From positions 445,797 to 509,796 of the forward strand of contig NC_090597.1 in NCBI RefSeq assembly GCF_000497125.1: 64,000 bases of DNA, in the 5' to 3' direction. This DNA is from Spironucleus salmonicida (lineage: Eukaryota). Made by a program: the position numbers and the translations under genes. The notes under the pieces were generated by a model that was not told the origin of the DNA, did not search any database, and saw nothing but the letters and a program-made list of their open reading frames with translations. Below, piece after piece: positions 1,328 through 46,066 of the stretch (positions are counted from its first letter, which is position 1; the number at the start of each line of letters is the position of its first letter).

Positions 1328-4300
1328 TCAAATGTCAGTATTATACTCGTTCGCGCTCATGCTCTCGTTGAGCTCCTGCGCCTCCTGCTCCAGGGCCATG
1401 AACCTTCTCTCGCTCTTCTTCCTCAAATACCTGATCACGAACACGACGATCGTGATGACGAGCGCAAGTGCGATGACTACGCCGATAACGACGAAAATGG
1501 CCACCGAGCCCTGAAGGTCGCTCACGCAAGACTCACCGTCGAACGTGAACCCGTTCTCGCAGCGCTTGCAGCGGCTTCTGATGGTGAGCCCGCCCAGGCA
1601 CTGCCTGCAGTCCTGCTGGATGTCGAATCCGGGGTGGCAGGAATCGCAGAAACCGGTTTGGGCGTTCGGCCTGTAGCCGTATTTGCAGGCACTGCAGGCG
1701 GACTCCTCAGAAAAGCCGGTCTTGCAGTTGAGACAGTTCGACTTGATGTCAAACTGGTTCAGGCAGTCCGAGCAGCCTTTCGCGGGATCGTAGTTCGTGG
1801 GGCACCGGCATATGAACTTTTTCACACCACGGTCGAACAGGCAGCTGGACTCGGGACAGCTCGCGGTACAAGTGCTAGGAGCGCAAATGAAGGTCTCGTC
1901 CGGATACGTATAAAGGATAAAGTTAGCCTTGCAGTTTAAACAAAACTTATCCATATTTTCAGCTTTGCACGAACATTTTGGGGAGAGGACGCCGGCCAAG
2001 GCTAAAATGGGGTCGTTAATACAGGAACCGCGCCCACTGCATTCAGTTGTCGCTATAGCAACGTCACAGAGATTCTTGGACTTCGGCTTTTCTTTAGTCG
2101 TGTCGCAATCCCTGCAGTTTTTGGGAATGCAGCGAATAGGATTGGGTTTTCCTTCTGGTCCTAAAGACGGAATGGTTTTACCACAGTCTTTGCATTTTAA
2201 TGTGGGCTCAAGCCAGCCTTTGCATTAGCAAGTCCAGGAAAACAGCGGTTTTGCACAGTTACCTTGCGCATTGCATACAGTACCTGAGTCGATACAATTT
2301 GCAGAGAAACACTCAGCTCCGACCTTGCTAAACTTATTTGCACAGTCTACGCATTGTGAGCCGGAATATCCAGTGGAGCAGACGCATTTGTTATTGGTGC
2401 AATCTCCATGGTTGTTGCAAATCATAGAGCCGTTCAGGCAAGCGGTTGAGACGCATACGCCGTTTACCAGAGTGAACCCAGTGGCGCAAGTTCCCGTTTT
2501 GCACTTTTATGCTGGATCTTGGTTGCCGGAGCAAGCGCAGGTGCTATCTTTGCAGGTCCCGTTCCCGCCGCAAATTAATTTATCGTCGCCAACGCAGGCA
2601 TTTGCTATACATTTTTAATCTACCAAAGTGAAGTTCGTGAGACAAGTCGTGCAGTCATTGTTGAAGTTTTCTTTGCACTTACAGGCTTTCGTAGTTAAAT
2701 CGCAGGTCCCGTTGTTGGCACAAATAACACCGTCCTTGAGGCAGTCGCTGGCCGTACAAACGTTCTTATCGCCAATTTTGATCATCTGTAGATCGCCTTC
2801 ACAGGCATCACATTTAGGCTAAAAGCCAGGACTGCACTCGCAGGCGTCATTCTTGCAGATCCCGTTTCCGTTGCAAATCACGCCAGAGTCAATGCAAGCA
2901 GTGGCAACGCAGTCTTCATTTATTAACTATTTATTTGCAGCACACGCGGAACATTGTTAGGCGGGGTCCAAATTATTTGTGCAGACGCATATATTTTTCG
3001 TGCAGGTCCCGGTCCCACCGCAAATTAATTTATCTTCACCAATGCAGGCATTTGCTATACATTTTCCACCTGACAAAGTGAAGTTCTCAAGACAAGCCGC
3101 ACAGTCCGTGCCAAAGTTTTCGTTGCACTAGCAGACATCATTCTTGCAGGTCCCGTTTCCGCTGCAAATCTTGCCAGAGATAATACAGGTAGTGGCAACG
3201 CAGTCTTCATTTATCAACTCTTTCCCTGCAACACACGCGGAACATTGTTAGGCGGGGTCCAAATTATTTGTGCAGACGCATATATTTTTCGTGCAGGTAC
3301 CCTTGTTGCTGCAAGCTGTTTTACCTGAAACGCAAGGAGTGGGAACACAAGTTCCATCCAATAACGTGTTTTCGGCCATACATTTAGAGCACTGATTCTC
3401 AGGATCAAAATTGTTCTCGCACTTGCATTTATCTTAAGAGCAGGTACCATTACCGCTACAAATATTTTTCCCCGTTATACAAGAATTAGATACACAAACT
3501 CCGTCAAAAACGTTGGAACCGTCTTAACATGACGTACAATTAGTTGCTGAATCAAAGTTTTTTTAACACGAGCATTTATCTCTAGAGCAGGAGCCATTAT
3601 TGTTGCATATTGTGTTATTTACGACACAACCAGCCATCTAGCAGGTCTTGACGCCGTCTTAGTCTATTTCAGCATAGCCTTCCACACATTCAGAGCACTA
3701 TTTTGCCGGGTCGTACTTTTCTCTGCAGACACATTTTTTGTTCGCCTCGCAGTGCCCGTCGTTGTTGCATACCTTTTCGCCATTTACGCAGTTGTTGTTG
3801 ATACAATAGTTAGCTAATTTCGTATACTCGGTATCGCAATTTTAGCATTAGCTGGCACTGTCATAGCCCTCAAAACACTGGCAAGTTCCATCAACACAGG
3901 ATCCTATATTGGCGCAAATCCCACCATCGGCGCTAAGACAGGTCTCCTTTGTGCATATTTATTTTCCTTAAATTTCGGCAATTATATCACCTTCAACGCA
4001 TTGTGAGCATTTTGACTCAGGGTCAAAATTGTTGGCGCAGGAGCAAACATTATTAGTACAGCTTCCGTTGCCAGAGCATATTTTCCCATCAATAAGGCAT
4101 TCCGTGTGCGAGCATACACCATCCACTGGTTATAGGCCATCAGCACAAGCAGAACATTATGAAGCTGGATCTAAATTCTTGTCACAGTGGCAAGACGTGA
4201 CACCGGTCTTATTTGTAAGACAAAGTCCTTATTTTGAGCATACATTATTAGTAGAATCTATGCATATCTTAGGATAGCATTAATCGAATCCTTCTTTGTC

Positions 4301-4339
4301 TACAGCTTATACGTAATCTGTTGGACACACTGTAGTCAT
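1328..4339 (-). CDS. Cysteine-rich membrane protein (EGF-like/CxC-CxxC modules, C-terminal TM), 1003 aa with TAR=Gln
   Basis: ATG at 4339 (MTTVCPTDYVQAVDKEG) is in frame with the track fragments through to TGA at 1328 (3012 nt). It has repeated C-x-C/CxxC modules, a C-terminal TM (VAIFVVIGVVIALALVITIVVFVI) and a basic tail YLRKK. Paralog of 32992-36297. Confidence 0.9.
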
Positions 4340-6869
4340 TTTACTAAGAAGTATAATAAAGATTTGATATAATATATATAATATTACTAAATACAGAAAA
4401 TTAGTGTTAGATATGTACTTATATTATATAAAAATAATAGTATTAGTAATATCAAAAACAGGGTTTTTCATCCATTATTTATATTTCTACATAATATTCT
4501 AATAATTCCTTGCATACAATTTTAATGTTAAATCTAAAATATATGATTGACCTTCTATTATATTAATAAATTAGAAATTCATATTTACTATGCTCTAGGA
4601 TATCATATCTAAAAATTCGTATACTTCTTTGTCAACAATCCACATTACATATTTTGTAAAATGTTCAATATTAATCAGACTACTGCCATAAATTCATGCA
4701 ATTTTCTAAAAATAGAGCAACTTTACATGATCTAAGATAACATTAATATTATTTCGTACATCAATATCTATTTAATGTGATATTTTGTATTAAAAATAAC
4801 CCTATTCAATTTCTAATATATAAAAATCAGCATATTTAATTATACAATAATTCAGCCTTTTGAAGTTTAAGTATAGTAATAGTAGAATATGTTTTCAATA
4901 AGATATAAATATAAGCTTTAATAATACGATTAAATCAATTGATACTTTTATTGATGCAAATAACGATTTTTTAACATCACAGTGTAGTATTAGTAATTCC
5001 TACTATGAGAAACCATAGAATATATAATAATTTATAGTTCAATAATTTCCATTACCTGAAAATATATGAAATTTGTATTTATACAAAAGTTTATGATTTA
5101 CATGAAAAAGCCAATTATTAGTTAAAATAATTCATTTAAATTTTGATCATATACTTTTATCTTGCTGAATTAATATCAAATCCTAAATAATACACTTAGC
5201 ATTAGTTATTATTATTCAATGTAACTAAAATTGAACTGTATAATAATCAGTATTATAATTTTTAATTCAATATCGTGACATAAAAGTTAAATAAATAATT
5301 AAATTACTAATTTGCTTAGTTTTATATTTAAGATACGTTCGTTCAAGTTGGCTAAACATAATATTAAAAGTATATATTTTACGAAGAACAAATTATATTC
5401 GTAGCTTCTCTTGTCTCAATATTTTAATGAAGATATCATAACTTAATTTAGTATATACTCTATGATGTGATCTAAAAAATAAGCTTTATACTAATATTTC
5501 AGACTTTATAATAGCTACTATTCTTTCTCCTTTATATTATGCAATTTTTGCAATATAAAAGTTTGCCACTCAAATACTGATTTAATAGATATAGTATAAT
5601 TAAAATTAGTTTGTTCTTGAAAATATAAAATTTCTGCTACATTGTATCAAGTAAATTTATATTATTTTAATAATATTTGCTAGGTTATTATTGAGTAATA
5701 TTTGATATATTAATAATTTACCTCTTATCAGACAATTATTATTTGTATTATTATTTTAATTATTATTTCATTCTTACAGGGAAATTTTGTTATAAAGTAT
5801 AAAGCGAAAATTATAATCATTGTATATAATATATATGTGTTTATAATTAAGAAAATATAGATAATAATTATAAAGATATTTATCTACTGAAACGGATAAC
5901 CATATGTATGAACTTTCTAACCTTTACTTTGTATAATATTATACTTTTATTAAAATATGATGAAGCAAGTAATATTACTACATCTTATGAACCATGTTTT
6001 AATATGTAAAAAAGTATTTATTGAAGCGTTCAGAGATTTATATTATAATATTGGTACGTTAGTGCACAGCTAAGCAATTGATTTATATAAATTTAGTGTA
6101 CACCAATGTTTACTCAATTAACAATAATAATATAATCAACTTACTAATTATGTAGCTATTTATGCATAACTAAGTAAATAATATATATAAAACACTTTGA
6201 TGTCCATTTGCGTTTTCGTTAAATTTTAAAGGTAATTCATTCGTTCAGTGTACAGTAATATTGTAATACAGATAATCATTAATGATTTTTAACACGTATA
6301 CTATTTACTAACGTATAATTCTAGCTATAACAGATAATTTTTTACTATTAAATTTTATTCCATCTTAATAAAACTTTAGATAAAATATTGAAATATTAGA
6401 CTTGACTACTAATATTTAGTAAATTATTCAAATAATCATAAATATATAGTTAATAAAGATTAAATGGTTTTATAATAGTTATGAATTATAAACTTAGTAA
6501 AACAAAGATATGTACTATTTTATTACTAAATTAAATATATTTATTATAAATATATTACCAAAAATTTATAGAATAAGTAAAATATCTATTTTTACAAATT
6601 ATAACTGCCTAAATTTCTAGATATACATTATATTATAATAATTCTACTAAACTTTTATAACATGTATAATATTAATAATATTCAATTTATCACTTTTAAT
6701 AAATATTACCATACGAAACATATTAATAAATTATTAAATTAATATCTATGAAATGTCATATATTATAAACTTATTTATACTTTATAAATAACACTGGAAA
6801 TAATTCGATATAAAATTAAAAATATTAGGTTATAATTCCATAAAAATTTATAGTGAATGATGTTTATAG

Positions 6870-11263: not shown

Positions 11264-12216
11264 GAGGTTTAATATTTATTTTGTGAAATGCTATATTTAT
11301 TCACTATTTTGCTCACTATCAATGGTTTATTTTATCTTAAATGCTAATAGGCAAGTATGTTTATCAGAACAGAGTAAAGTGAAACTTTAGATAATAGGAA
11401 CCACGTAATCTACTTTTACATCAGTAAGCATTCTGTAATTGTTATGACGTATAAGTTTACATCAAATGTTATAGTTTTAAGCAAATTTTGATATAAATTT
11501 TTACTGTGGAAGCTTTAATTTAATACACTATTTATTGAAAGACAGTTAACAATAATAATATTATTTTAATACCTAGCTTTATTATTTTACGCCTATTAAT
11601 CGCTTATTTCCTATAACTTAAGCATTCTAGATAGCTTAAGTAAAAATATTCAAAATATTTTAAGTAAGAGTGCCTAAAGTTAAGTTAAATAATAAGTTAA
11701 TTTAATTCGAACTTATTAACAGTAGACGCTATACCAATAATTTCATAGTTAAATTATTGTTATTTCTTATAAATTTATGCAAACAGTAAGTAGTAGTTTG
11801 TTATCAAGACTAGTTTAGTGATTTACGGTAACTAGTAGTATTTATACAAATACATTCACCACTTAGGCGAAATACGGTCCAGTAGCGTCTTAGTGGTAAT
11901 TTGTTGTTAATATAACCCAATATTAAATCAAACTACCCTCGATGAAATAAATCATCTACAGGTTTCCATGTTCGTATTTTAGAAAAGTATCAATACATAT
12001 TATAATTGTATTTAGCAAAGTAAACACTTTTAGGGAAATGCCTAGATCCAGCGTAATCAGCTTTTGTGTATGGCGATCTCCTTATGCAAGGAATAGGTGT
12101 CTATGGCTAGTTTAAGTAATTTATGAAGCATGATACTTTCTGCATAATTTTCATATAGAGCTAAGTACGTTCTAGGGTAATAAGGAAATATTATATAGTT
12201 GCGGAAATACCACATC

Positions 12217-12322
12217 AGTACGATGGTGCAGTGGGAGCATTCTTGCAATTTAACATTTCAATGTGATCATTCATATGACAGATAGTTATTAAGAGACCTG
12301 GGTTCGATTCCTAGTCGTGCTA
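12217..12322 (+). tRNA. tRNA gene with ~34-35 nt intron/insertion in the anticodon loop; anticodon uncertain (possibly TTA, i.e. a Gln UAA decoder)
   Basis: Acceptor AGTACGA/TCGTGCT, T8-G9, D-arm GTGC-AGTGGGA-GCAT, anticodon stem CTTG(C)A/TTAAG, variable loop AGAC, T-arm CTGGG-TTCGATT-CCTAG, discriminator A, and a T-run shortly downstream. Confidence 0.7.
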
Positions 12323-12831
12323 ACTTATTTATTAATTACGTCAAGGTACGCAATTTCCATATTATGATTATAGCTTGTATGCAGCATTTACTATATGCGT
12401 CCTGTATATTATAATAAAGCGCATCTAGCCCAATCCTCGTATAAGCCATATCCTAAAATTAAGATATTTATCACATTATATGTATCTGACTGTTTATGGA
12501 AACTTACTGCACAATGGTCATACTCACATCCGTTTATGAGAATGGGCCAAAAATTGAAGTTAAAAGTATTAATTTAGCAGCAGCATTTACAATTATACAA
12601 CCCAGTAGTCACCTACTAACATCCTCTGAAACTAATCATTTTTCAGTACAATGGCTAATGACAATCACAAGATAATGCTTATAACTCTCGCGACTAGAAT
12701 ACATGAAGGTTGTGAAAGTTTTACTTAAACTCTCAGTAAAGCATTTTCCTTAACCTCTCCTATATAATACCATCCGATATCTACCTCAAAAGCTTTAACG
12801 CCAATAGCATTTAAAATAGGTAAAATGTCAC

Positions 12832-20848: not shown

Positions 20849-22648
20849 ATGTCCGTCTTCACATGCCCAGATAACATCTGCCCATTCGGCACTGTTTGCC
20901 CAACTGCTACGCCAGACGGGTCCCAGACTACCTGTAAAGCGTGCGACCGCTTCAAATGCGGAATCTGCGATCCCGAGAACACGGCAGTTTGCATCGGCTG
21001 CCCCCCTGGCAAGTTTCTGGTGGACAATAGCTGCGAATACTGCTCTTTCGGCTGCGAGAGTTGCTCAGACAGCAAACACTGCATGAAGTGCGAACCGGGC
21101 AGGTTCCTCGAAGACAATTACTGCTCAACGTGCGGTCCAGATTGCGATTCGTGCGCCTCTAGCACGGTATGTAATACCTGCAAACAGGGCTACTTTTTGA
21201 CACCTGACCACACTTGCTAGAAATGCGTCGCCGGGTGCGCGGAGTGCTAGATGCCATAGCAGTGCACCAGGTGCGCGTCCGGGTTCCACTCCGTGGGCCA
21301 GACGTGCTAGCCCTGCCAGGAGAGGTGTGAAGAGTGCTCTAGCAGCACGAATTGCACGAGATGCGCGCCCTCAGCCAGCCTCAAAAACAGCCTATGCGTA
21401 TCCTGCGTACCGCACTGCGCCAAATGCTCAGAGGCTGGCAGTTGTGTTACCTGCGGAGACGGCTACGTCCTATAAAACTCCACCTGCGTGTCATGCGGGC
21501 CGCACTGCCGCGCCTGCAGCGCCGTTGGCGAGTGCCTGCTCTGCGAGAAGGACTACACGCTAGCAGTTCGTGGCGATGAGACGATATGCCGCTACACCGA
21601 ATGCGACAAGTTGAACCCATGCAAGACCGGGAAGTACTGCCTCGCGGAGCGCGGCGGCAACTACTGCTTCACGCTGGAGCCGAACTGCATCGCGCTGAGC
21701 GGTTTCCGCGTCTGCAGCCAGTGCGCCCCCCACTACGCAAGCTACATGAACGGATGCGAGAAGTGCGCGCCCAACTGCGAGTACTGCTTGAATGACCGCG
21801 TGTGCCAGAACTGCTTCGAGCGCTACTTTGTGAACGAAAAAAGCATCTGCGAGCGGTGTGCGCCAGGGTGCAAATTCTGCGTCAACGGCGCGACATGCTA
21901 CGAGTGCCTCCCCGGGTACGCGCTCGCGGACGGCATCTGCGAAAAGCTGGAGAAAAGCGAGTGCCGCAGCAGCACGGATTGCCCTACCCAGAGCTTCTGC
22001 CTCTAAATTCCTCAGTTTTCGAGCTGCGAGACGTGCATTGCCAACTGCGAGAGGTGCTCCAGCTTCAACACCTGCGAGGTTTGCGCGCCGGGATTCGTCT
22101 TCCAGAATAATGCCTGCGTGCGCTGCCCGTCAGGCTGCGCCAGTTGCTACGACGCAGACACGTGTGTTCAGTGCGATCGCGGGTATACTTTTGACGCTAA
22201 TTTTGTGTGCGAGAAGTGTACGAGCGCAGCATCATGTGAGGCGTGCGAGAGCGGCTACTAGCTGCAGAACGGCTCTGAGTGCGTCTATCGCGGGTGCGCA
22301 GGCGAGAAGCAGTGCGGAGTTGGCGAGTTCTGCGAGGCGACTAATAACGTAGAGCAGTGTTAGGATTGTGAGACTGGCTGCGGGGGCTGTTTGGCCCGTG
22401 AAACTTGCAATTGGTGCGAGATTGGCTATCAGCTTGTCGATGGAAGATGCGAACAGTCCGTTCAAAAGGCAAGTGCTGGAGTGGCTTGGCTATTAACTGC
22501 TGTGATAAGTGTCATTGTTGCATGCATTGTGGGAGGGGTTGCTTACTTAGTTGTGAAGATGGGTAAAAATAAGGCGTTAAAGATGGGAATATAGAAAGAC
22601 TTATATGAAGAAAACAGTGGTATTAGGACGCAATAACCATAAGAGTGA
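20849..22648 (+). CDS. Cysteine-rich membrane protein (CxxC/furin-like repeats), 599 aa, array copy 1
   Basis: MSVFTCPDNICP... joined via TAR=Gln; TM VAWLLTAVISVIVACIVGGVAYLVV; stop GAG-TGA at 22646-22648. Confidence 0.9.
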
Positions 22649-23870
22649 CCGGGATAAGTACCTTAGGCTATATCAAAGTAACTCAGAAAATGCTGTTGTT
22701 TTTGGGAGCAGGCTATCCGTGCCAAGCCTAGTTATTTATGCACCAAATGTGTTATTCGAATCATTCAACTAAATACATGAAAAGGATACGGGTGACTAGT
22801 TTAAGCGTAGAAGCTGACTAATTTTATAATAAAATCACAATATTACTACTTAGATTTCAAATGCTTTGAGGTTATGTTTAATAACAATATTAAATGTTAT
22901 GCTTAAAAATTGGGCGTATTAAAGTGATAAAGCTTTTGATTTAGACACGAAAATCCGTAAAGAAATACTTTAAATTAATTTTATAGAGCGTATAGAAAAT
23001 CATTATAAAACTCTTGCCTTGTGAGGATTATAGTCACCTTAATCTTTTATAATTTCATCAGAACTTTTGAACTATACAGTATTACGTAACCCGTACCAAA
23101 AGTAGGGCTCGGCCGGCTTCGGTTTAAACAACGGAAAGTCATGGCTCTGGTCGCAACGCGGTCATAAAAATGACTGTGGCGGTTTTGAAACTGGAGAGTA
23201 CTGGTTCCTGTTTTTACTGATTACTCAAAATCATACTTTCTATATACCTAAAACAAAATTGTCGGAATAGTAAAATTATTATGCCAAATTTAATTACATG
23301 TATTATAAATCATACCAATTAGTCTGTCATTTTATTAGATGTGCGAGATAATTTATTAAATGTTACAATGAAGCATAATAATACATCTACTGTTATAAGT
23401 ATTGATTTAAACTATATATATATAAACTAAAATTATTAAAATATATATAGCACCAATAAATAAAAATATATGCATTTAGTTTCTTTTTACATAATTAGTT
23501 ATTCTTACTAATTATAATTTTAAAAATTTAGTTTTTAATATTTACTATTATATATTTATTCACTAGTTAGAATTATTAATTAAACTTATTATCAATTTAT
23601 ATTATCTGCAATATATTTTACTACGAAGATTTACCGTAAAATTTATTCAATATACTATTAAACCCCTAGCATATTCAAATGATTGCAAATTTTATTCGAT
23701 CTGCGCTTATATTCCCTAATATCAACAAAAACACCTTTCCACTTGTTGCAGTTTTTATTTACTAATAACTAATTGCCAATTGCGTTCTATAGTGTAGTTG
23801 AATATATCCTAAAAATAACTCTGCTAATTTAGTACTTTCGCGCGTTATTAGTTTCCGAAGTCATTTTAAA

Positions 23871-25670
23871 ATGTCCGTCTTCACATGCCCAGATAACATC
23901 TGCCCATTCGGCACTGTTTGCCCAACTGCTACGCCAGACGGGTCCCAGACTACCTGTAAAGCGTGCGACCGCTTCAAATGCGGAATCTGCGATCCCGAGA
24001 ACACGGCAGTTTGCATCGGCTGCCCCCCTGGCAAGTTTCTGGTGGACAATAGCTGCGAATACTGCTCTTTCGGCTGCGAGAGTTGCTCAGACAGCAAACA
24101 CTGCATGAAGTGCGAACCGGGCAGGTTCCTCGAAGACAATTACTGCTCAACGTGCGGTCCAGATTGCGATTCGTGCGCCTCTAGCACGGTATGTAATACC
24201 TGCAAACAGGGCTACTTTTTGACACCTGACCACACTTGCTAGAAATGCGTCGCCGGGTGCGCGGAGTGCTAGATGCCATAGCAGTGCACCAGGTGCGCGT
24301 CCGGGTTCCACTCCGTGGGCCAGACGTGCTAGCCCTGCCAGGAGAGGTGTGAAGAGTGCTCTAGCAGCACGAATTGCACGAGATGCGCGCCCTCAGCCAG
24401 CCTCAAAAACAGCCTATGCGTATCCTGCGTACCGCACTGCGCCAAATGCTCAGAGGCTGGCAGTTGTGTTACCTGCGGAGACGGCTACGTCCTATAAAAC
24501 TCCACCTGCGTGTCATGCGGGCCGCACTGCCGCGCCTGCAGCGCCGTTGGCGAGTGCCTGCTCTGCGAGAAAGACTACACGCTAGCAGTTCGTGGCGATG
24601 AGACGATATGCCGCTACACCGAATGCGACAAGTTGAACCCATGCAAGACCGGGAAGTACTGCCTCGCGGAGCGCGGCGGCAACTACTGCTTCACGCTGGA
24701 GCCGAACTGCATCGCGCTGAGCGGTTTCCGCGTCTGCAGCCAGTGCGCCCCCCACTACGCAAGCTACATGAACGGATGCGAGAAGTGCGCGCCCAACTGC
24801 GAGTACTGCTTGAATGACCGCGTGTGCCAGAACTGCTTCGAGCGCTACTTTGTGAACGAAAAAAGCATCTGCGAGCGGTGTGCGCCAGGGTGCAAATTCT
24901 GCGTCAACGGCGCGACATGCTACGAGTGCCTCCCCGGGTACGCGCTCGCGGACGGCATCTGCGAAAAGCTGGAGAAAAGCGAGTGCCGCAGCAGCACGGA
25001 TTGCCCTACCCAGAGCTTCTGCCTCTAAATTCCTCAGTTTTCGAGCTGCGAGACGTGCATTGCCAACTGCGAGAGGTGCTCCAGCTTCAACACCTGCGAG
25101 GTTTGCGCGCCGGGATTCGTCTTCCAGAATAATGCCTGCGTGCGCTGCCCGTCAGGCTGCGCCAGTTGCTACGACGCAGACACGTGTGTTCAGTGCGATC
25201 GCGGGTATACTTTTGACGCTAATTTTGTGTGCGAGAAGTGTACGAGCGCAGCATCATGTGAGGCGTGCGAGAGCGGCTACTAGCTGCAGAACGGCTCTGA
25301 GTGCGTCTATCGCGGGTGCGCAGGCGAGAAGCAGTGCGGAGTTGGCGAGTTCTGCGAGGCGACTAATAACGTAGAGCAGTGTTAGGATTGTGAGACTGGC
25401 TGCGGGGGCTGTTTGGCCCGTGAAACTTGCAATTGGTGCGAGATTGGCTATCAGCTTGTCGATGGAAGATGCGAACAGTCCGTTCAAAAGGCAAGTGCTG
25501 GAGTGGCTTGGCTATTAACTGCTGTGATAAGTGTCATTGTTGCATGCATTGTGGGAGGGGTTGCTTACTTAGTTGTGAAGATGGGTAAAAATAAGGCGTT
25601 AAGGATGGGAATATAGAAAGACTTATATGAAGAAAACAGTGGTATTAGGACGCAATAACCATAAGAGTGA
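23871..25670 (+). CDS. Cysteine-rich membrane protein, array copy 2
   Basis: Near-identical to 20849-22648. Confidence 0.9.
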
Positions 25671-26891
25671 CCGGGATAAGTACCTTAGGCTATATCAAAG
25701 TAACTCAGAAAATGCTGTTGTTTTTGGGAGCAGGCTATCCGTGCCAAGCCTAGTTATTTATGCACCAAATGTGTTATTTGAATCATTCAACTAAATACAT
25801 GAAAAGGATACGGGTGACTAGTTTAAGCGTAGAAGCTGACTAATTTTATAATAAAATCACAATATTACTACTTAGATTTCAAATGCTTTGAGGTTATGTT
25901 TAATAACAATATTAAATGTTATGCTTAAAAATTGGGCGTATTAAAGTGATAAAGCTTTTGATTTAGACACGAAAATCCGTAAAGAAATACTTTAAATTAA
26001 TTTTATAGAGCGTATAGAAAATCATTATAAAACTCTTGCCTTGTGAGGATTATAGTCACCTTAATCTTTTATAATTTCATCAGAACTTTTGAACTATACA
26101 GTATTACGTAACCCTACCAAAAGTAGGGCTCGGCCGGCTTCGGTTTAAACAACGGAAAGTCATGGCTCTGGTCGCAACGCGGTCATAAAAATGACTGTGG
26201 CGGTTTTGAAACTGGAGAGTACTGGTTCCTGTTTTTACTGATTACTCAAAATCATACTTTCTATATACCTAAAACAAAATTGTCGGAATAGTAAAATTAT
26301 TATGCCAAATTTAATTACATGTATTATAAATCATACCAATTAGTCTGTCATTTTATTAGATGTGCGAGATAATTTATTAAATGTTACAATGAAGCATAAT
26401 AATACATCTACTGTTATAAGTATTGATTTAAACTATATATATATAAACTAAAATTATTAAAATATATATAGCACCAATAAATAAAAATATATGCATTTAG
26501 TTTCTTTTTACATAATTAGTTATTCTTACTAATTATAATTTTAAAAATTTAGTTTTTAATATTTACTATTATATATTTATTCACTAGTTAGAATTATTAA
26601 TTAAACTTATTATCAATTTATATTATCTGCAATATATTTTACTACGAAGATTTACCGTAAAATTTATTCAATATACTATTAAACCCCTAGCATATTCAAA
26701 TGATTGCAAATTTTATTCGATCTGCGCTTATATTCCCTAATATCAACAAAAACACCTTTCCACTTGTTGCAGTTTTTATTTACTAATAACTAATTGCCAA
26801 TTGCGTTCTATAGTGTAGTTGAATATATCCTAAAAATAACTCTGCTAATTTAGTACTTTCGCGCGTTATTAGTTTCCGAAGTCATTTTAAA

Positions 26892-28691
26892 ATGTCCGTC
26901 TTCACATGCCCAGATAACATCTGCCCATTCGGCACTGTTTGCCCAACTGCTACGCCAGACGGGTCCCAGACTACCTGTAAAGCGTGCGACCGCTTCAAAT
27001 GCGGAATCTGCGATCCCGAGAACACGGCAGTTTGCATCGGCTGCCCCCCTGGCAAGTTTCTGGTGGACAATAGCTGCGAATACTGCTCTTTCGGCTGCGA
27101 GAGTTGCTCAGACAGCAAACACTGCATGAAGTGCGAACCGGGCAGGTTCCTCGAAGACAATTACTGCTCAACGTGCGGTCCAGATTGCGATTCGTGCGCC
27201 TCTAGCACGGTATGTAATACCTGCAAACAGGGCTACTTTTTGACACCTGACCACACTTGCTAGAAATGCGTCGCCGGGTGCGCGGAGTGCTAGATGCCAT
27301 AGCAGTGCACCAGGTGCGCGTCCGGGTTCCACTCCGTGGGCCAGACGTGCTAGCCCTGCCAGGAGAGGTGTGAAGAGTGCTCTAGCAGCACGAATTGCAC
27401 GAGATGCGCGCCCTCAGCCAGCCTCAAAAACAGCCTATGCGTATCCTGCGTACCGCACTGCGCCAAATGCTCAGAGTCTGGCAGTTGTGTAACCTGCGGA
27501 GACGGCTACGTCCTATAAAACTCCACCTGCGTGTCATGCGGGCCGCACTGCCGCGCCTGCAGCGCCGTTGGCGAGTGCCTGCTCTGCGAGAAGGACTACA
27601 CGCTAGCAGTTCGTGGCGATGAGACGATATGCCGCTACACCGAATGCGACAAGTTGAACCCATGCAAGACCGGGAAGTACTGCCTCGCGGAGCGCGGCGG
27701 CAACTACTGCTTCACGCTGGAGCCGAACTGCATCGCGCTGAGCGGTTTCCGCGTCTGCAGCCAGTGCGCCCCCCACTACGCAAGCTACATGAACGGATGC
27801 GAGAAGTGCGCGCCCAACTGCGAGTACTGCTTGAATGACCGCGTGTGCCAGAACTGCTTCGAGCGCTACTTTGTGAACGAAAAAAGCATCTGCGAGCGGT
27901 GTGCGCCAGGGTGCAAATTCTGCGTCAACGGCGCGACATGCTACGAGTGCCTCCCCGGGTACGCGCTCGCGGACGGCATCTGCGAAAAGCTGGAGAAAAG
28001 CGAGTGCCGCAGCAGCACGGATTGCCCTACCCAGAGCTTCTGCCTCTAAATTCCTCAGTTTTCGAGCTGCGAGACGTGCATTGCCAACTGCGAGAGGTGC
28101 TCCAGCTTCAACACCTGCGAGGTTTGCGCGCCGGGATTCGTCTTCCAGAATAATGCCTGCGTGCGCTGCCCGTCAGGCTGCGCCAGTTGCTACGACGCAG
28201 ACACGTGTGTTCAGTGCGATCGCGGGTATACTTTTGACGCTAATTTTGTGTGCGAGAAGTGTACGAGCGCAGCATCATGTGAGGCGTGCGAGAGCGGCTA
28301 CTAGCTGCAGAACGGCTCTGAGTGCGTCTATCGCGGGTGCGCAGGCGAGAAGCAGTGCGGAGTTGGCGAGTTCTGCGAGGCGACTAATAACGTAGAGCAG
28401 TGTTAGGATTGTGAGACTGGCTGCGGGGGCTGTTTGGCCCGTGAAACTTGCAATTGGTGCGAGATTGGCTATCAGCTTGTCGATGGAAGATGCGAACAGT
28501 CCGTTCAAAAGGCAAGTGCTGGAGTGGCTTGGCTATTAACTGCTGTGATAAGTGTCATTGTTGCATGCATTGTGGGAGGGGTTGCTTACTTAGTTGTGAA
28601 GATGGGTAAAAATAAGGCGTTAAGGATGGGAATATAGAAAGACTTATATGAAGAAAACAGTGGTATTAGGACGCAATAACCATAAGAGTGA
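26892..28691 (+). CDS. Cysteine-rich membrane protein, array copy 3
   Basis: Near-identical to 20849-22648. Confidence 0.9.
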
Positions 28692-29912
28692 CCGGGATAA
28701 GTACCTTAGGCTATATCAAAGTAACTCAGAAAATGCTGTTGTTTTTGGGAGCAGGCTATCCGTGCCAAGCCTAGTTATTTATGCACCAAATGTGTTATTT
28801 GAATCATTCAACTAAATACATGAAAAGGATACGGGTGACTAGTTTAAGCGTAGAAGCTGACTAATTTTATAATAAAATCACAATATTACTACTTAGATTT
28901 CAAATGCTTTGAGGTTATGTTTAATAACAATATTAAATGTTATGCTTAAAAATTGGGCGTATTAAAGTGATAAAGCTTTTGATTTAGACACGAAAATCCG
29001 TAAAGAAATACTTTAAATTAATTTTATAGAGCGTATAGAAAATCATTATAAAACTCTTGCCTTGTGAGGATTATAGTCACCTTAATCTTTTATAATTTCA
29101 TCAGAACTTTTGAACTATACAGTATTACGTAACCCTACCAAAAGTAGGGCTCGGCCGGCTTCGGTTTAAACAACGGAAAGTCATGGCTCTGGTCGCAACG
29201 CGGTCATAAAAATGACTGTGGCGGTTTTGAAACTGGAGAGTACTGGTTCCTGTTTTTACTGATTACTCAAAATCATACTTTCTATATACCTAAAACAAAA
29301 TTGTCGGAATAGTAAAATTATTATGCCAAATTTAATTACATGTATTATAAATCATACCAATTAGTCTGTCATTTTATTAGATGTGCGAGATAATTTATTA
29401 AATGTTACAATGAAGCATAATAATACATCTACTGTTATAAGTATTGATTTAAACTATATATATATAAACTAAAATTATTAAAATATATATAGCACCAATA
29501 AATAAAAATATATGCATTTAGTTTCTTTTTACATAATTAGTTATTCTTACTAATTATAATTTTAAAAATTTAGTTTTTAATATTTACTATTATATATTTA
29601 TTCACTAGTTAGAATTATTAATTAAACTTATTATCAATTTATATTATCTGCAATATATTTTACTACGAAGATTTACCGTAAAATTTATTCAATATACTAT
29701 TAAACCCCTAGCATATTCAAATGATTGCAAATTTTATTCGATCTGCGCTTATATTCCCTAATATCAACAAAAACACCTTTCCACTTGTTGCAGTTTTTAT
29801 TTACTAATAACTAATTGCCAATTGCGTTCTATAGTGTAGTTGAATATATCCTAAAAATAACTCTGCTAATTTAGTACTTTCGCGCGTTATTAGTTTCCGA
29901 AGTCATTTTAAA

Positions 29913-31712
29913 ATGTCCGTCTTCACATGCCCAGATAACATCTGCCCATTCGGCACTGTTTGCCCAACTGCTACGCCAGACGGGTCCCAGACTACCTGTA
30001 AAGCGTGCGACCGCTTCAAATGCGGAATCTGCGATCCCGAGAACACGGCAGTTTGCATCGGCTGCCCCCCTGGCAAGTTTCTGGTGGACAATAGCTGCGA
30101 ATACTGCTCTTTCGGCTGCGAGAGTTGCTCAGACAGCAAACACTGCATGAAGTGCGAACCGGGCAGGTTCCTCGAAGACAATTACTGCTCAACGTGCGGT
30201 CCAGATTGCGATTCGTGCGCCTCTAGCACGGTATGTAATACCTGCAAACAGGGCTACTTTTTGACACCTGACCACACTTGCTAGAAATGCGTCGCCGGGT
30301 GCGCGGAGTGCTAGATGCCATAGCAGTGCACCAGGTGCGCGTCCGGGTTCCACTCCGTGGGCCAGACGTGCTAGCCCTGCCAGGAGAGGTGTGAAGAGTG
30401 CTCTAGCAGCACGAATTGCACGAGATGCGCGCCCTCAGCCAGCCTCAAAAACAGCCTATGCGTATCCTGCGTACCGCACTGCGCCAAATGCTCAGAGTCT
30501 GGCAGTTGTGTAACCTGCGGAGACGGCTACGTCCTATAAAACTCCACCTGCGTGTCATGCGGGCCGCACTGCCGCGCCTGCAGCGCCGTTGGCGAGTGCC
30601 TGCTCTGCGAGAAGGACTACACGCTAGCAGTTCGTGGCGATGAGACGATATGCCGCTACACCGAATGCGACAAGTTGAACCCATGCAAGACCGGGAAGTA
30701 CTGCCTCGCGGAGCGCGGCGGCAACTACTGCTTCACGCTGGAGCCGAACTGCATCGCGCTGAGCGGTTTCCGCGTCTGCAGCCAGTGCGCCCCCCACTAC
30801 GCAAGCTACATGAACGGATGCGAGAAGTGCGCGCCCAACTGCGAGTACTGCTTGAATGACCGCGTGTGCCAGAACTGCTTCGAGCGCTACTTTGTGAACG
30901 AAAAAAGCATCTGCGAGCGGTGTGCGCCAGGGTGCAAATTCTGCGTCAACGGCGCGACATGCTACGAGTGCCTCCCCGGGTACGCGCTCGCGGACGGCAT
31001 CTGCGAAAAGCTGGAGAAAAGCGAGTGCCGCAGCAGCACGGATTGCCCTACCCAGAGCTTCTGCCTCTAAATTCCTCAGTTTTCGAGCTGCGAGACGTGC
31101 ATTGCCAACTGCGAGAGGTGCTCCAGCTTCAACACCTGCGAGGTTTGCGCGCCGGGATTCGTCTTCCAGAATAATGCCTGCGTGCGCTGCCCGTCAGGCT
31201 GCGCCAGTTGCTACGACGCAGACACGTGTGTTCAGTGCGATCGCGGGTATACTTTTGACGCTAATTTTGTGTGCGAGAAGTGTACGAGCGCAGCATCATG
31301 TGAGGCGTGCGAGAGCGGCTACTAGCTGCAGAACGGCTCTGAGTGCGTCTATCGCGGGTGCGCAGGCGAGAAGCAGTGCGGAGTTGGCGAGTTCTGCGAG
31401 GCGACTAATAACGTAGAGCAGTGTTAGGATTGTGAGACTGGCTGCGGGGGCTGTTTGGCCCGTGAAACTTGCAATTGGTGCGAGATTGGCTATCAGCTTG
31501 TCGATGGAAGATGCGAACAGTCCGTTCAAAAGGCAAGTGCTGGAGTGGCTTGGCTATTAACTGCTGTGATAAGTGTCATTGTTGCATGCATTGTGGGAGG
31601 GGTTGCTTACTTAGTTGTGAAGATGGGTAAAAATAAGGCGTTAAGGATGGGAATATAGAAAGACTTATATGAAGAAAACAGTGGTATTAGGACGCAATAA
31701 CCATAAGAGTGA
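29913..31712 (+). CDS. Cysteine-rich membrane protein, array copy 4
   Basis: Near-identical to 20849-22648. Confidence 0.9.
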
Positions 31713-32991: not shown

Positions 32992-35900
32992 ATGACTGCA
33001 GTGTGTCCAAAAGATTATGTATAAGCTGTAGACAGAGAAGGATACAAAGAATGCTATCCTGACGTATGTATAGATTCTAATAAGAAGGTATGCTCAGACT
33101 AGGGACTTTGCCTTACAAACAAGGCCGGTAAAACGTCTTGCTACTGTGACAAGAATTTAGATCCAACTTAAAAGTGTTCGGTTTGTGCGAATGGCCTAGA
33201 ACCAGTGGATGGTGTATGCTCGTACGCGGGATGCCTTATTGATGGAAAAATCTGCTCTGACAACGGAAGCTGTACTAATAGTATTTGCTCCTGCGCCAAC
33301 AATTTTGACCCTGCATCAAAATGCTCAAAATGCGCTGAAAATGATATAATTGTCGAAATTTAAGGAAAATAACTATGCACAAAGGCGAGCTGTCTTAGCG
33401 CCGATGGCAGGATTTGCGCCAATATAGGATCCTGCGAGAATGGAACTTGCCAGTGTTTTGAGGGCTATGACAGTGCCAGCTAATGCTAAAATTGCAATGC
33501 CGAGTATACGAAATTAGCTAACTATTGTATCCACAACAACTGCGTAAATGGCGAAAAGGTCTGCAACAACGACGGGCACTGCGATAAGAACAAAGAATGT
33601 ATCTGCAGAGAAAAGTACGACCCGGCAAAATAGTGCTCTGAATGTATGGACGGCTATGCGGAAATAGACTAAGGCGGCGTCAAGACGTGCTAGATGGCTG
33701 GTTGTGTCGTAAATAAAACAATATGCAACAACATAGGGGCCTGCTCTAGAGATAAATGCTCGTGTTAAAAAAAGTTTGATCCAGCAACTAAGTGTACGTC
33801 ATGTTAAGACGGTTTAAGCGTGTTTGATGGAGCTTGTATATCTAATTCTTGTATAACGGGGAAGAATATTTGTAACGGTAATGGTAGCTGCTCTTCAAAC
33901 AAATGCAGGTGCACAAACAATTTTGATCCTTAGAACCAGTGCTCGAGCTGCCTGGCAAATAACACGTTATTGGATGGAATTTGTGTTCCTACCCCTTGCA
34001 TTTCAGGTAAAACAACTTGCAGCAACAAGGGGACCTGCTCTTCAAATAAATGCAGGTGCAGAAATAATTTGGACCCCACCCAAAAATGTTCTGCGTGTGT
34101 TGCAGGGAAAGAGTTGATAAATGAAGACTGCGTTGCCACTGCCTGTATTATCTCTGGCAAGATTTGCAGCGGAAACGGGACCTGCACGAATGACGCCTGC
34201 TAGTGCAACGAAAACTTTGGCACGAACTGCGCGGCTTGTCTTGAGAACTTCACTTTGTCAGGTGGGAAATGTATAGCAAATGCCTGTATTGGCGACGATA
34301 AATTAGTTTGCGGCGGGACCGGGACTTGCTCTTAAAATAAATGCAAGTGCACAAATAATTTTGATCCTGATAAACAGTGTTCTAAATGTATGGACGAAAC
34401 CACGTTATTGGGTGGAATTTGTATTCCCACTCCTTGTGTTTTAGGTGATACAATTTGCAGCAACAAAGGGAGCTGCACGAAAAATGTATGCATCTGCAAG
34501 AATAATTTTGATCCTGATAACCAGTGCTCTAGCTGCCTGGCAAATAATACACTATTGGGCGGCATTTGTATTCCGACTCCTTGTGTTTTAGGTGATACAA
34601 TTTGCAACAACAAGGGGACCTGTAGGAATAATGCGTGCGTCTGCACAAACAATTTGGACCCCACCAAAAAATGTTCCGCGTGTACTGCAGATAAATAGTT
34701 AGTAAATGATGACTGCGTTGCCACTGCCTGTATTATCTCTGGCGTGATTTGCAGCGGAAACGGGACCTGCACGAATAACTCCTGTTAGTGCGGTCCTGGT
34801 TTTAAGCCTTAATGCGAAGGCTGCAAAGACGGTCTACAGATGGTCAATATTGACGATAAGAACGTTTGCACGGCCAGCGAGTGCCTCAAAGAAGGTGTTA
34901 TTTGTGCCAACAACGGGACCTGCGATTTAGATAAGAAAACCTGTAACTGCAAAGAAAACTTCGGCACGGACTGCGCGACTTGTCTCACGGGCTTCACTTT
35001 GGTAGATTAAAAATGTATAGCAAGTGCCTGCGTTGACGACGATAACTTAATTTGCGGCGGGAACGGGACCTGCAAAGATAACACCTGCGCTTGCTCCGGC
35101 AACCAAGATCTAGCATAAAAGTGCAAAACGGGAATTTGTGCTACTGACTTCACTCTGGTAAGTGACGCATGCGTCTCAAATACTTGCCTAAAAGATAATA
35201 TCATTTGCAACAATCACGGAAATTGCACCAAGAACAAATGCGTCTGCTCCACTGGATATTCCGGCACACAATGTGTAGACTGTGCAAAGAATTACAGCAA
35301 GGCCGGAGCTGAGTGTTTCTCTACAAATTGTGTCGACTCAGGTACTGTATGCAACTCTTAAGGTAGATGTGCAAACTCATTTTTTTCCACGAGTTGCTAA
35401 TGCAAAGGCTGGCTTGAACCCAAGTCAAAATGCAAAGACTGTGGTAAGAGCCTTGCTTCTTTAGGAGCAGACGGAAAACCCAATCCGATTCGTTGCATTC
35501 CCAAAATCTGCAGGGACTGCGACACGACTGCGGAGAACTCAACTTCAACGAAAATCTGTGACGTTGCTATAGCGACAACAGAATGCGGTGGGCTTGGTGC
35601 CTGTGTTAACGACCCCGTTGCAGCGGTTGCCGGCTTCCTTGTCCCAAAATGCTCGTGCAAAAGTGAAAATATGGAGAATTTTTGTTTAGGCTGCAAGGCA
35701 ACCTTTATCCTCCACACGTATCCTGACAAGAGATTCATTTGCGCCCCTAACACCTGCTCCACGGACTGTCCCGATTCCAACTGCCTGTTCGACCGTGTCC
35801 TGAAAAAGTTCGTCTGCAGGTGCCCCACGAACTACGATCCCGCGAAAGGCTGCTCGGACTGTCTGAACCACTTTGACATCAAGTCGAACTGCCTCAACTG

Positions 35901-36297
35901 CAAGGCCGGCTTTTCCGAGAAGTCCGCCTGCCGCACCTGTAACTACGGCTACAGGCCGAACGCCCAGACCGGCTTCTGCGATTCCTGCCACCCCGGATTC
36001 GACATCTAGCAGGACTGCAAGCAGTGCCTGGGCGGGCTCACCATCAGGAGCCGCTGCAAGCGCTGCGAGAACGGGTTCGCGTTCGACGGTGAGTCTTGCG
36101 TGAGCAACCTTCAGGGCTCGGTAGCCATTTTCGTCGTTGTCGGCGTCGTCATCGCGCTTACGCTCGTCATCACGATCGGAGTGTTCGTGGTCAAGTATTT
36201 GAGGAAGAAAAACGAGATAAGGTTCATGGCCCTGGAGCAGGAAGCGCAGGAGCTCAACGAGAGCATGCGCATGAACGAGTACAATACCGACATTTGA
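32992..36297 (+). CDS. Cysteine-rich membrane protein (EGF-like modules), 1101 aa; inverted paralog of 1328-4339
   Basis: ATG at 32992 (MTAVCPKDYVQAVDREG), 3306-nt frame, and nearly the same TM and tail (YLRKK...MNEYNTDI*). Confidence 0.9.
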
Positions 36298-40237: not shown

Positions 40238-41824
40238 TCACTTTCCACATATTGACTAAATAATGCTTTGAACCGCTAAACAGCACCTGCCCTTATCGCC
40301 TTCGCTAACCTAGCTCATTATATCAGCAAAATCACTATATTCAACTCCTTTTTCCACCTTTCCACATACTTAAATAGAAACTGATATAACGCTCGCGAAA
40401 CTTTTCCGTTCCGGTTTTTTAGCTTTTTTCTGTGAAACGGAAAACGTTTTCGGCGCGTTCCCTTCCTTTGGAGCGCCAACCACCTCGAGGTCCAGAACGC
40501 TCAATTTCGGTTTTTGGGCATGCCCGTTTCCACAATATTTCGCCGCAGAATCCTGGTACGGCTGAGAAACTGCTGAAACTTGTTAGTCGTTCAGCTCGGA
40601 ATCGAACCCACCATCGTCTAATTTTTGCTTGCCCACTGCAACTAAGCCAATTTTGTTGGAAGTAATTATTTTTATCGAACTTTGTAGCGAGCAAAACCTT
40701 TCTGATGAATCTGAATTTTGACTTCCCAGGAGCTGGATTTCGCGATTAGACCGCCCAGACAACTTGCGCGAATGATCTAATTCCGCTCGCGCCACTCCAA
40801 AATTTTCGCTCCTGCCTGGCGATCTCCGGCGTTTTACCGCAGAAACTATCTTCCCTTCCACATAATTTTACTCAATTTTCGTTCCCGCGGTGCGCGAAAC
40901 CAGCAGAGAATCTGCATTTTCCGCTCCTTTTTTAACGACTTTAGCAGAAACTATCAGCGCATCGCTGGCATTTTCCGCACCGTTAGGCCTCCGCGCAGGC
41001 GCTGGTTTCGCAAAAGACTTCTAGAGGGCTTCAGGGATTTCTGCGCTTTCTAAGGAGCGGAAACTCGCTTATATCACTTGGTGAGTTTGTGGTTCATTGA
41101 GTTTTTGTATACCTTGTTTTTTGACGAATTTAGCAGAAACTATCAGCGCATCTACTTACTTTTCCTCTCCTTTTTACTGATATAACGATTTTAAGTGATA
41201 TAACTCTGAAAAATTTTCCCAAAACGCCTCCTTTTCGCCCTCGCTGGCCTCTGCAAAACTGCGCTCTTCTGGCGAAACTTACGGCTTTGATGCCAGCCCA
41301 ATTTCTACTGTTTCCGGCAAATCCGATTTCGCGAGTTTCTCAGAAACTATCAGCGCAAATCGCTCCAGTTCTTACCCTTCCTATTCTTATTTTTAGTAGC
41401 CCCCACTGACACTAAAAGAAGACGAATTTTCGGTCTGAAAATGCGAAATTTCGGCAGTCAAATCCGGCCGCATTTTGGCCTCTGGGGTGCAGCCGATCCA
41501 GAAGTAGTCCTCCAGCGACTGGCTCGAAAAGGCCTCGAAACGGCGGCTGGCGAGCTCCTCGTAGTCCGAGCAGCTCGGTGCGGAAGGGGCGTGCAAATCG
41601 CATGATGGGGGCGGGACTCGTCTATTTGCGGGGTTATTGGGGCTCTGGTGCGATTCTAGGGGTGGCTGGGTTGATTTTGGGGAGTTATCGCTTAATTTCG
41701 CGGTATTGAGCTAATGTGGGTAGGAAATGGAGGTTTATAGGCTATATGGGGCGTGGGTGGCTGCGGGGATGCAGTAGGGCCGAATTACGCCCGTATAGCG
41801 CGATTCTGGTAGCGCGGTGTGCAT
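40238..41824 (-). CDS. Hypothetical low-complexity protein with repeated ALIVS motif, 528 aa
   Basis: Frame checked free of TGA over 1587 nt; stop AAG-TGA. Confidence 0.7.
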
Positions 41825-44556: not shown

Positions 44557-44876
44557 AACATGAAAAATTATGGTAATTAGTATGTATAATACAACTATAA
44601 TGAAGTTTAAAAATAATTTATTTTTTATCTAACTTTATTTAATGCTAATTTGAGAAGCACTGAGTCACTTTATGATTATATAATACAAAAATTCTTAGTT
44701 ATATTTTAATTATTTAGCTAATTTTATAAATTTATTATTAAATAACTTATTTCCAGTTAATAAATTATACTAGTTATATATTGCATAAATATTTTCTACG
44801 ATCCTGATTTTCTAACAGTAATTATCAACTAATGTTTGAAATATAAGAATTTTCATTTAATACGCCCACGTCTAGG

Positions 44877-45887
44877 ATGACGATAATTCTGATCTGCGTG
44901 GCCTTCGCGGGCTGCGCGAACGGCCTCTTCTTCCCCACCGCCATCGGGGTTGCGGCCTCCCTGGACGTGAGCTTCATCGCCGCCTTCAATGCTGGGTCGG
45001 GAATCGCCGGTATAGTTGCCCAGGTGCTCAAGGTGATCACGAAGCCCATCATCCCCTTCAACAGCAAGGCCCCCACCTTCGACTCCGTGCTGTACTACAC
45101 CACCGTGGCCTACTACATCATCGCCGCTATCTTCGTGCTCGTGACCTACTTCGCCTACTTCTGGCTCGTCAAGAACTACGGCGCTGACAAGATCGAGTTC
45201 GACGCCGCCGACCGCCAGAAGTACTTCACGCGCGACAAGAGCGCCGCCAAGGAGGTCGCCGCCCCCGGCACCACCTTCTTCGACGCGGTCAAGAACTTGT
45301 GGATGCCCGGCGTCTCGCTCTTCCTCATCTTCTTCGTCACCCTCACCCTGTTCCCCGCCATCACCATCCAGATCCTGTGCTACTCCATGTTCAAGACCAA
45401 CGAGTCCGGCAAGTACGGCGACTGGTGGTCCATCATCATGTTCTCCTGGTTCATGGTCGGCGACTGGGTCGGCCGGCAGTTCCCCTCCTGGAAGTGGGGG
45501 CTCAGCATCTGGAACGTCAAGACGCTCTTCATCGCCGCCATCGTCAGGCTCGCCTTCATCGCGCTCTTCATCATCCAGATCGTGCCCTACTACCACTGGC
45601 CTGCCGGTACCGCTTCGCCTGCTGCAGCTGGCACCGCCCCCGACGGCCTTCCCCTCGTCCACAACGACCTGGTGGCCTGGATCGTGATGATCCTCTTCGC
45701 GGTGTCCAACGGCTGGTTCATGTGCGCCATCTTCTGCAAGTACGGCAGCATCATGAAGCCCGAGACCAACGGCACGCACGCCGCCAACTTCATGACCCTC
45801 TGCCTCAACATGGGCCTCCTCTTCGGCAGCTCGCTCGGCACCGTCGTGTCCATCATAATTGATAGCGCGAAGGCCAGTCTGGGCTGA
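44877..45887 (+). pseudogene. 5'-truncated copy of the equilibrative nucleoside transporter (336 aa from an internal Met)
   Basis: Matches the C-terminal 336 aa of 53825-55177 but lacks the first 114 codons; the duplication breakpoint lies 3 nt before the ATG. Confidence 0.75.
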
Positions 45888-46066
45888 GAGTGAACGTAAT
45901 TATCCTTTAGCAAGTGCGGGCCATCCCATCCCACCCGCCGCAGCGCTGCCCGCTCAGTCGCATATACTATATATCCCGCCGTGCATATTTCGCCAGCCTG
46001 AAAAACGGGAGCGAAGTAGTCCCCTCCATATAATAACGGCATATTCCGGTCATTCCTAATTTCCGC

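Follow-up and report, generated by a model that had tools for sequence, protein, structure and literature searches.

Gene content and genetic code of the locus

The window (the whole 64,000-nucleotide stretch of DNA that was analysed) carries a tRNA gene on the plus strand at 12217-12322, in a non-coding gap between open reading frames (ORFs). ORFs of the window code for Giardia-VSP-like and EGF-like cysteine-rich membrane proteins, and further ORFs for a proteasome-type AAA ATPase, a CDK-like kinase and a nucleoside transporter. At 20849-31712 lie four tandem copies of a 599-aa cysteine-rich ORF, which contains a Giardia VSP domain (PF03302, E = 1.2e-15); the copies start at 20849, 23871, 26892 and 29913, about 3021-3022 nt apart. 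Two large and plainly related cysteine-rich EGF-like membrane proteins, of 1105 and 1101 aa, are encoded about 28 kb from each other, at 1328-4645 on the minus strand and at 32992-36297 on the plus strand. The segments 44874-49264 and 50448-54838 form a 4391-nt inverted repeat, 100% complementary and with a 1183-nt spacer, which mirrors the nucleoside-transporter gene, the CDK-like kinase gene and an ORF for a 486-aa membrane protein. At 59381-59983 there is an AT microsatellite with the 7-nt unit ATATATA (86.6 copies, 98% matches), which gives a spurious 454-aa ORF under code 6.

The coding regions are informative with respect to the genetic code. Translation of positions 1-30000 under code 6 gives 26 ORFs of 200 aa or more, versus 3 under the standard code. 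Four long ORFs together contain 52 TAA and 29 TAG codons in frame, next to 33 CAA and 72 CAG codons, and all four end in TGA; the same ORFs have 123 AAA codons. One ORF, for an MCM3-like helicase, contains 31 in-frame TAA/TAG codons, and in an alignment to yeast MCM3 two of these, TAA166 and TAG313, fall on conserved glutamines, the latter being the Q of the KSQ motif in the P-loop. Seven other TAA/TAG positions of this alignment (with TAA codon 239 left out) stand opposite residues other than Q (E, I, K, R, T and H), and these look like variable sites. The ORF lengths under code 6, the codon counts and the alignment of MCM3 glutamines thus show that UAR is glutamine in the host; this is a genome that uses TAA and TAG as Gln codons, and the host therefore needs a tRNA that decodes UAA and UAG. 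The code and the VSP-like proteins together fit a hexamitid diplomonad.

Any organism in which TAA and TAG specify glutamine needs tRNAs for them, and how such tRNAs are built bears on how genetic codes change. Genes for UAR-decoding tRNAs were identified earlier in the hexamitid group, according to a passage of PMC1805757 that cites Keeling and Doolittle (1997). A passage of PMC3916229 gives a total of 145 tRNAs, of which 143 serve the 20 amino acids, one is for selenocysteine and one is of unknown isotype; 10 have introns. In the literature we found no description of hexamitid tRNA introns or of UAR decoders with a bulged anticodon stem.

A tRNA gene with an intron-sized insert

When positions 12180-12360 were searched separately, the Rfam tRNA model RF00005 matched with 37.2 bits (gathering score 29; E = 9.2e-07), in an alignment that covers model positions 1-71 of 71 and skips the anticodon region as a local end. 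At the gathering threshold and with standard filters, Rfam gave no match in the window as a whole. ARAGORN with default settings likewise predicted no gene in the window, because it does not allow introns by default; with introns allowed it predicted a single gene, whose ends are exactly 12217 and 12322 on the plus strand, with scores of 102.8-104.3. The Rfam score and this prediction agree, and 12217-12322 is therefore a genuine tRNA gene and more than a chance resemblance.

The cloverleaf can be followed directly in the sequence. The acceptor stem (12217-12223 with 12315-12321) has seven pairs, one of them U-G, and is followed by U8 and G9 (12224-12225). The D stem (12226-29 with 12237-40) encloses a 7-nt D loop with G18 and G19, and a single base, 12241, serves as nucleotide 26 on its 3' side. 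The halves of the anticodon stem (12242-46 and 12289-93) are separated by 42 nt (12247-12288). A 4-nt variable loop (12294-97), a T stem (12298-12302 with 12310-14) around the T loop TTCGATT, and the discriminator A73 (A12322) complete the structure. The intact acceptor, D and T arms and the 42-nt separation had been described in the first-pass annotation of this DNA, and all are found in place. Positions that are universal in tRNAs are U8, A14, the pair G15-C48, G18 and G19, A21, the pair G53-C61, U54, U55 and C56, and A58. Every one of these nucleotides is present here, with most of them at 12224, 12230, 12231/12297, 12233-34, 12302/12310, 12303-05 and 12307.

As to the isotype, the short D loop and the 4-nt variable loop resemble the Gln/Glu/Asp/Gly class of tRNAs rather than tRNA-Lys or tRNA-Asn. 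The tRNA-Gln of yeast and human has U73, and the gene in the window has A73.

Competing readings of the anticodon arm

The anticodon depends on how the stem is closed. If it is paired strictly, C12246 stands opposite T12289 as a mismatch at position 31-39, A12248 becomes A33, and TTT is left as the anticodon; the intron is then 35 nt long (12253-12287). If C12246 is left unpaired, between stem positions 30 and 31, A12247 pairs with T12289, U33 falls at 12249, the anticodon is TTA at 12250..12252, and A37 follows at 12253. In this second fold the 5' exon extends over 12217..12253 (with 12242-45 and 12247 as the 5' strand of the anticodon stem and 12248-53 as loop positions 32-37), the intron is the 34 nt at 12254..12287, and the 3' exon is 12288..12322, with nucleotide 38 at 12288 and the T arm at 12298-12314; the extent of the 5' exon is based on the sequence, the Rfam alignment and the enumeration of splice choices described below. 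Both folds place the intron at the canonical site between nucleotides 37 and 38, and the free mode of ARAGORN puts it elsewhere. Both had been put forward at first reading: the strict one, with its A33, TTT and C:T mismatch, is seen in the sequence as it had been described, and the one with U33, TTA, A37 and a 34-nt intron emerged anew when all splice choices were enumerated.

This enumeration combined every 5' exon end in 12243-12262 with every 3' exon start in 12272-12291 and considered plain arms of 17 nt as well as arms of 18 nt with a single bulge, merging duplicates; arms were retained if four or more stem pairs formed, position 33 was U and position 37 was a purine. Five arms were retained, and all of them are 18 nt long, have the bulge in the 5' strand and present the anticodon UUA. 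All five stem pairs are formed in just two of these solutions, both with C12246 bulged. Among the enumerated splice choices there was no plain 17-nt arm with at least 4 pairs, U33 and R37. A canonical elongator arm, with a 5-bp stem, a 7-nt loop, U33 and R37, is thus available here when one base, C12246, is left unpaired and not otherwise. UUA would on this modelling be the only reading with a canonical loop, conditional on the assumed bulge and splice sites.

How often such an arm would arise by chance was estimated from 20,000 permutations of the 44 nt enclosed by the four stem pairs that are not in dispute. A bulged canonical arm appeared in 41% of these shuffles, a plain one in 21%, and one with UUA or CUA as its anticodon in 6.6%. 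The UUA reading on its own is therefore not beyond chance and does not by itself constitute evidence.

The prediction programs arrive at other anticodons. In its free intron mode (-i) ARAGORN calls tRNA-Asn(gtt) with a score of 104.3 and a 37-nt intron at 12247-12283, and with the intron fixed at 37/38 (-if) it calls tRNA-Asn(att) with a score of 102.8. The tool thus bears out the gene and its exact ends, and gives GTT or ATT instead of the TTA that had been proposed. In both modes the stem is moved by one base (12241-45 with 12290-94), nothing is left to serve as nucleotide 26, and position 33 is A. Three programs or modes thus give three different anticodons, GTT, ATT and TTT, each of them with a non-canonical A33.

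A tRNA-Asn with GUU or AUU and a 37-nt intron has in its favour the two ARAGORN calls and a shifted stem that forms five pairs without any bulge. The two modes nevertheless disagree with each other, GUU needs a non-canonical intron position, and a hand enumeration of the shifted register gives A33 for every choice and leaves the D stem and the anticodon stem without a nucleotide 26 to separate them. Moreover, the bases of the GUU loop (12284-89) are changed at 12285 and 12288 in a second copy of the locus (see below), such that the anticodon would not be kept. We regard this identity as highly improbable.

A tRNA-Lys(UUU), with the 35-nt intron, the stem CUUGC/UUAAG and the loop A-A-UUU-A-A, is the straightforward alignment and needs no bulge. 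It would serve the AAA codons, which are frequent in the four long ORFs, and the tRNA-Lys(UUU) of yeast also has an intron. It requires, however, A33 in place of the U33 of elongator tRNAs together with the C-U mismatch at 31-39, and both defects persist in the second copy of the locus; its A33 also kept this arm out of those retained in the enumeration. Lysine tRNAs, furthermore, are unlike the present gene in its 4-nt variable loop and short D loop. These points make a lysine tRNA quite improbable.

A second copy of the locus and a possible gene family

Two sequencing runs, the DNA run X1 and the run X7, contain a second, divergent copy of the entire locus (12128-12473). Among the substitutions listed for the X7 copy, none affects the 68 exon and anticodon-loop positions 12217-44, 12248-53 and 12289-12322, versus 34 changes at 212 positions of the flanks and intron (16% divergence), distributed as 14/59 in the upstream flank, 7/35 in 12254-88 and 13/118 downstream. 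In 12254-12288 one position is also deleted. The difference is significant by Fisher's test (p = 6e-05, or 6e-04 if the single unlisted change is exonic); 37 of the 38 substitutions of the X7 contig are among those listed, 16 of its 24 gap letters lie outside the listing, and from the table of differences as a whole 30 substitutions and 18 indel rows are left out, so that an indel may have been missed. The tRNA body is therefore under constraint in both copies, and on these sequences its conservation argues against the two genes being long-dead pseudogenes.

The sole part of the exons that differs between the two copies, among the differences listed, is the patch 12245-47 at the bottom of the anticodon stem, which reads G-C-A in the window and A-U-G in X7. 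According to base pairs read by hand from the table of differences, as all pairs of the second copy were, U40 and U39, which are unchanged, keep purine partners in the X7 patch, and a pyrimidine is retained as the extra base (T in place of C12246). If the X7 copy is paired strictly, a mismatch at 31-39 (U-U) and A33 remain. In the X1 version of the second copy a 3-nt deletion removes precisely this patch, which by hand reading would reduce the stem to 4 pairs and put AAC, an anticodon of valine, at the centre of the loop. As the window and X7 share the three bases, their loss is most simply explained as a derived change, and perhaps represents a null allele. Judged from these versions, the patch is unstable.

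These observations bear on the main rival to the tRNA-Gln(UUA) reading, namely that the gene is a decaying or inactive family member whose body is intact, which yields little or no working tRNA, and whose decoding task falls to working members at other loci, with whatever anticodon these have. The loss of the patch in X1 is in keeping with such decay, and the arm of the window copy cannot be given a plain form of 5 pairs and 7 nt with any splice choice. A spare copy could also decay because several loci share its 3' exon: contigs end at 12318 and 12317 and start at 12293, and the excess depth over 12289-12322 is about 126, which by arithmetic from depth and contig ends suggests about 4-5 genomic loci with an identical 3' exon from position 39 on (12289-12322). 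One other locus with the shared 3' exon continues as CCCTTTT after 12321. A dead gene should, however, have accumulated changes in the exons and loop as it did elsewhere; the X7 version shares the surplus base, which is thus older than the split of the two loci, and all the universal tertiary nucleotides are intact. Weighing these points with those on splicing and transcription given below, we consider decay unlikely, if the most serious of the alternatives.

A further possibility is that the sequence is a tRNA-shaped gene whose anticodon arm is under no decoding constraint, being either a member of a family with another anticodon, as the Val(AAC)-like form in X1 might be, or a tRNA-like RNA or DNA element that is retained for some function besides decoding. 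The exons are perfectly kept and yet the three bases of the stem patch have all been changed in one version and deleted in the other, which is what this explanation would expect; A73 is an identity element of tRNA-Val, and there is no terminator nearby. It does not account well for the loop positions 12248-53 and the first six intron bases 12254-59, which among the differences listed are unchanged in both versions of the second copy and argue for a constraint on the loop. By hand reading, the window copy cannot offer an AAC anticodon in any register, and the probably derived state of the X1 deletion is a further point against it. This explanation appears improbable to us.

Intron and splicing

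In eukaryotic pre-tRNAs nucleotide 32 pairs with intron nucleotide -3, and the 3' splice site lies in a small bulge. This pair is absent in the window copy, in which A12248 (position 32) is opposite G12285, and by hand reading just 2 of the 4 pairs of the central helix can form in the register that gives UUA. In the constrained minimum-energy fold an 8-bp helix of 12251-58 with 12280-88 encloses both splice sites. The fold of the whole precursor is no better than that of shuffled sequences (z = -0.57). On paper the window copy would thus be a poor substrate for splicing, and the unpaired A32, the incomplete central helix and the buried splice sites all speak for a decaying copy. A passage of PMC4090602 on tRNA splicing names an A-I pair and describes a ruler mechanism, which measures from the tRNA body, with splice sites in single-stranded stretches that adjoin helices.

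The second copy differs at this point. By hand reading its loop positions 32-35 (AUUU) can pair with intron positions -6 to -3 (AAAU), and the helix so formed leaves 3-nt bulges at 12252-54 and 12286-88, at both of the proposed splice sites. Intron changes at 12283, 12285 and 12288 enable this helix, and with 12285 as T there would be a partner for nucleotide 32. As modelled, the second-copy helix fits the register that gives UUA.

Eight public sequencing runs in two studies contain the tRNA stretch, none of them recorded as RNA. In four runs no contig spans the exon-exon junction, though contigs lose short RNAs and no run is recorded as RNA; the contigs from runs that we guessed to be RNA represent the unspliced gene with its flanks and are uninformative on expression or splicing. 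A contig of run X5 ends at 12321, which was considered as a possible site of RNA processing and rejected, as the same branch point is present in a DNA run. Within the intron, 12267 is T in the window and C in the X1 and X5 contigs, probably an allelic difference, and a contig of run X6 ends just before it, like a branch point.

RNA polymerase III signals

The internal promoter elements are intact when compared with their consensus, with the A-box region, read from the sequence, at 12224-34 and the B box GGTTCGATTCC at 12301-11. The 3' trailer (12323..12643) starts AACTTATTTATT, and right behind the gene nothing more than TTATTTATT is present. Runs of at least four T are absent from the 316 nt 3' of the gene, the first being TTTTT at 12639; this distance to a T-run terminator again favours a decaying copy. 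On the minus strand a 13-nt match to the T arm and B box at 40598-40610 was also considered, and is probably due to chance: it lies within the ORF 40238-41824, and neither ARAGORN nor Rfam gives a tRNA there.

Proposed identity and mechanism

The first-pass annotation had suggested an intron-containing tRNA that may carry a UUA anticodon and decode the reassigned stop codons. Of this suggestion, a tRNA gene with an intron-sized insert in a genome in which UAR is sense stands, as does UUA as the sole reading with a canonical loop; the step to a working UUA decoder is weakened by the 41% of shuffles that give a bulged canonical arm, by the poor structure at the splice sites, by the lack of a T-run terminator nearby and by the loss of the 3-nt patch in X1. 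Our preferred reading is that 12217-12322 is a tRNA-Gln(UUA)-type gene with an intron at the canonical position and one unpaired base in the anticodon stem. We hold it tentatively, at a probability of roughly 45%, with putative splice sites, a putatively extruded base, and presumed charging with glutamine and activity of this particular copy.

Under this tRNA-Gln(UUA) reading RNA polymerase III would transcribe the locus, a nuclear tRNA gene, from its internal A and B boxes, and the gene would be one isodecoder of a small family of loci with an identical 3' exon. Its 34-nt intron would lie one base downstream of the anticodon. Excision of 12254-12287 by the tRNA splicing endonuclease, followed by joining by a ligase, would give an anticodon arm of 18 nt, one more than the usual 17. 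In the stem, from which C12246 would be extruded, the pairs C-G, U-A, U-A, G-U and A-U would form, and the loop would be A-U-UUA-A-A. The mature tRNA would then read UAA, and perhaps UAG by wobble, both of which are Gln codons in the host.

Provided that the gene is active in decoding UAA, it would combine cognate reading of a stop codon with an irregular anticodon stem and an intron, and would be a concrete case in which routine tRNA annotation gives the wrong anticodon. Should it instead be a decaying copy, it would be ordinary, and the lesson would be that calls of intron-containing tRNAs in such genomes ought to be checked by hand. A broader proposal is that the extra unpaired pyrimidine, rather than damage, is the normal design of the host's UAA-decoding tRNA-Gln genes, kept across paralogues together with the intron. 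This we think doubtful; were it correct, tRNA finders would return wrong anticodons (Lys or Asn) for such genes and could hide stop-codon decoders of hexamitids, and the irregular stem might tune the decoding of former stop codons, like the shortened stem of the UGA-reading tRNA-Trp discussed below.

Comparison with known systems

The closest counterparts of the proposed tRNA are the tRNA-Gln(UUA) and tRNA-Gln(CUA) of hexamitids and many ciliates in which UAR is glutamine. The gene in the window shares with them a host in which UAR means Gln, and in the proposed form a cognate UUA anticodon, but here UUA is obtained only with one stem base unpaired. The 34-nt intron is counted as another difference, in a comparison for which the reference genes are known from a passage of the citing paper.

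With the intron-containing nuclear tRNAs of eukaryotes in general the gene has in common an intron at 37/38, of a length in the usual range, and intact A and B boxes. It differs from them in that the window copy is without the pair between nucleotide 32 and the intron and has its splice sites in a predicted helix, and in that the surplus stem base makes the 5' cut set by the ruler ambiguous.

Irregular anticodon stems have been described in other decoders of stop codons. According to a passage of PMC13092985, UGA is read in some trypanosomatids and ciliates by a tRNA-Trp(CCA) whose anticodon stem has 4 bp. The likeness to the present gene lies in a protist with a changed code and an unusual stem, and strict folding gives four pairs here as well. 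From what that passage describes, however, the tRNA-Trp(CCA) has a near-cognate anticodon and its short stem enables misreading, whereas a UUA anticodon in the window gene would be fully cognate to UAA and would therefore need no special stem; the window gene, moreover, is irregular in that its stem has one base too many next to the loop. The UAG-decoding tRNA-Pyl(CUA) of Methanomethylophilus alvus and relatives, as described in a passage of PMC7609411, has an unpaired nucleotide in its anticodon stem and still works, and removal of this base altered translation little. On that description it is a precedent for a tRNA that decodes a stop codon with an anticodon stem interrupted by an unpaired base, and it differs from the window gene in being archaeal, in having a stem of 6 bp in which the unpaired A belongs to the 3' strand, in the absence of an intron and in its amino acid.

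The archaeal bulge-helix-bulge motif is given in a passage of PMC4090602 as a helix of 4 bp with a 3-nt bulge on either side, at the splice sites. By hand reading the second copy resembles it, with 4 of 4 helix pairs that include the first two anticodon bases, and the window copy, with 2 of 4, does not; the motif is also not required in a eukaryotic host.

Searches for related tRNAs

To gain a view of the isotype beyond the locus, sequence collections were scanned with parts of the gene. A scan of genome contigs with the D-arm motif and the B box gave 16 loci that contain 18 prokaryotic tRNAs, namely four Thr(AGT), five His, two Gly, one each of Gln, Glu and Trp, and four unassigned. As the isotypes of these D-arm matches are mixed, the D arm does not name an isotype. 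A scan of viral contigs with 24 nt of the 3' exon gave no match. Three loci came from a metagenome scan that used 20 nt from the D arm and stem, and were rejected as chance matches: they are GC-rich and of bacterial type, and ARAGORN finds no tRNA in them.

One metagenome-assembled genome labelled 'bacterium' (loci L004-L006, L010 and L018) has at least seven near-identical tRNA genes with AGT-type loops on five contigs; three of these genes stand in tandem at L010 and are left unassigned by ARAGORN. The many copies and the Thr anticodon with A34 are eukaryote-like, and this bin may contain eukaryotic DNA.
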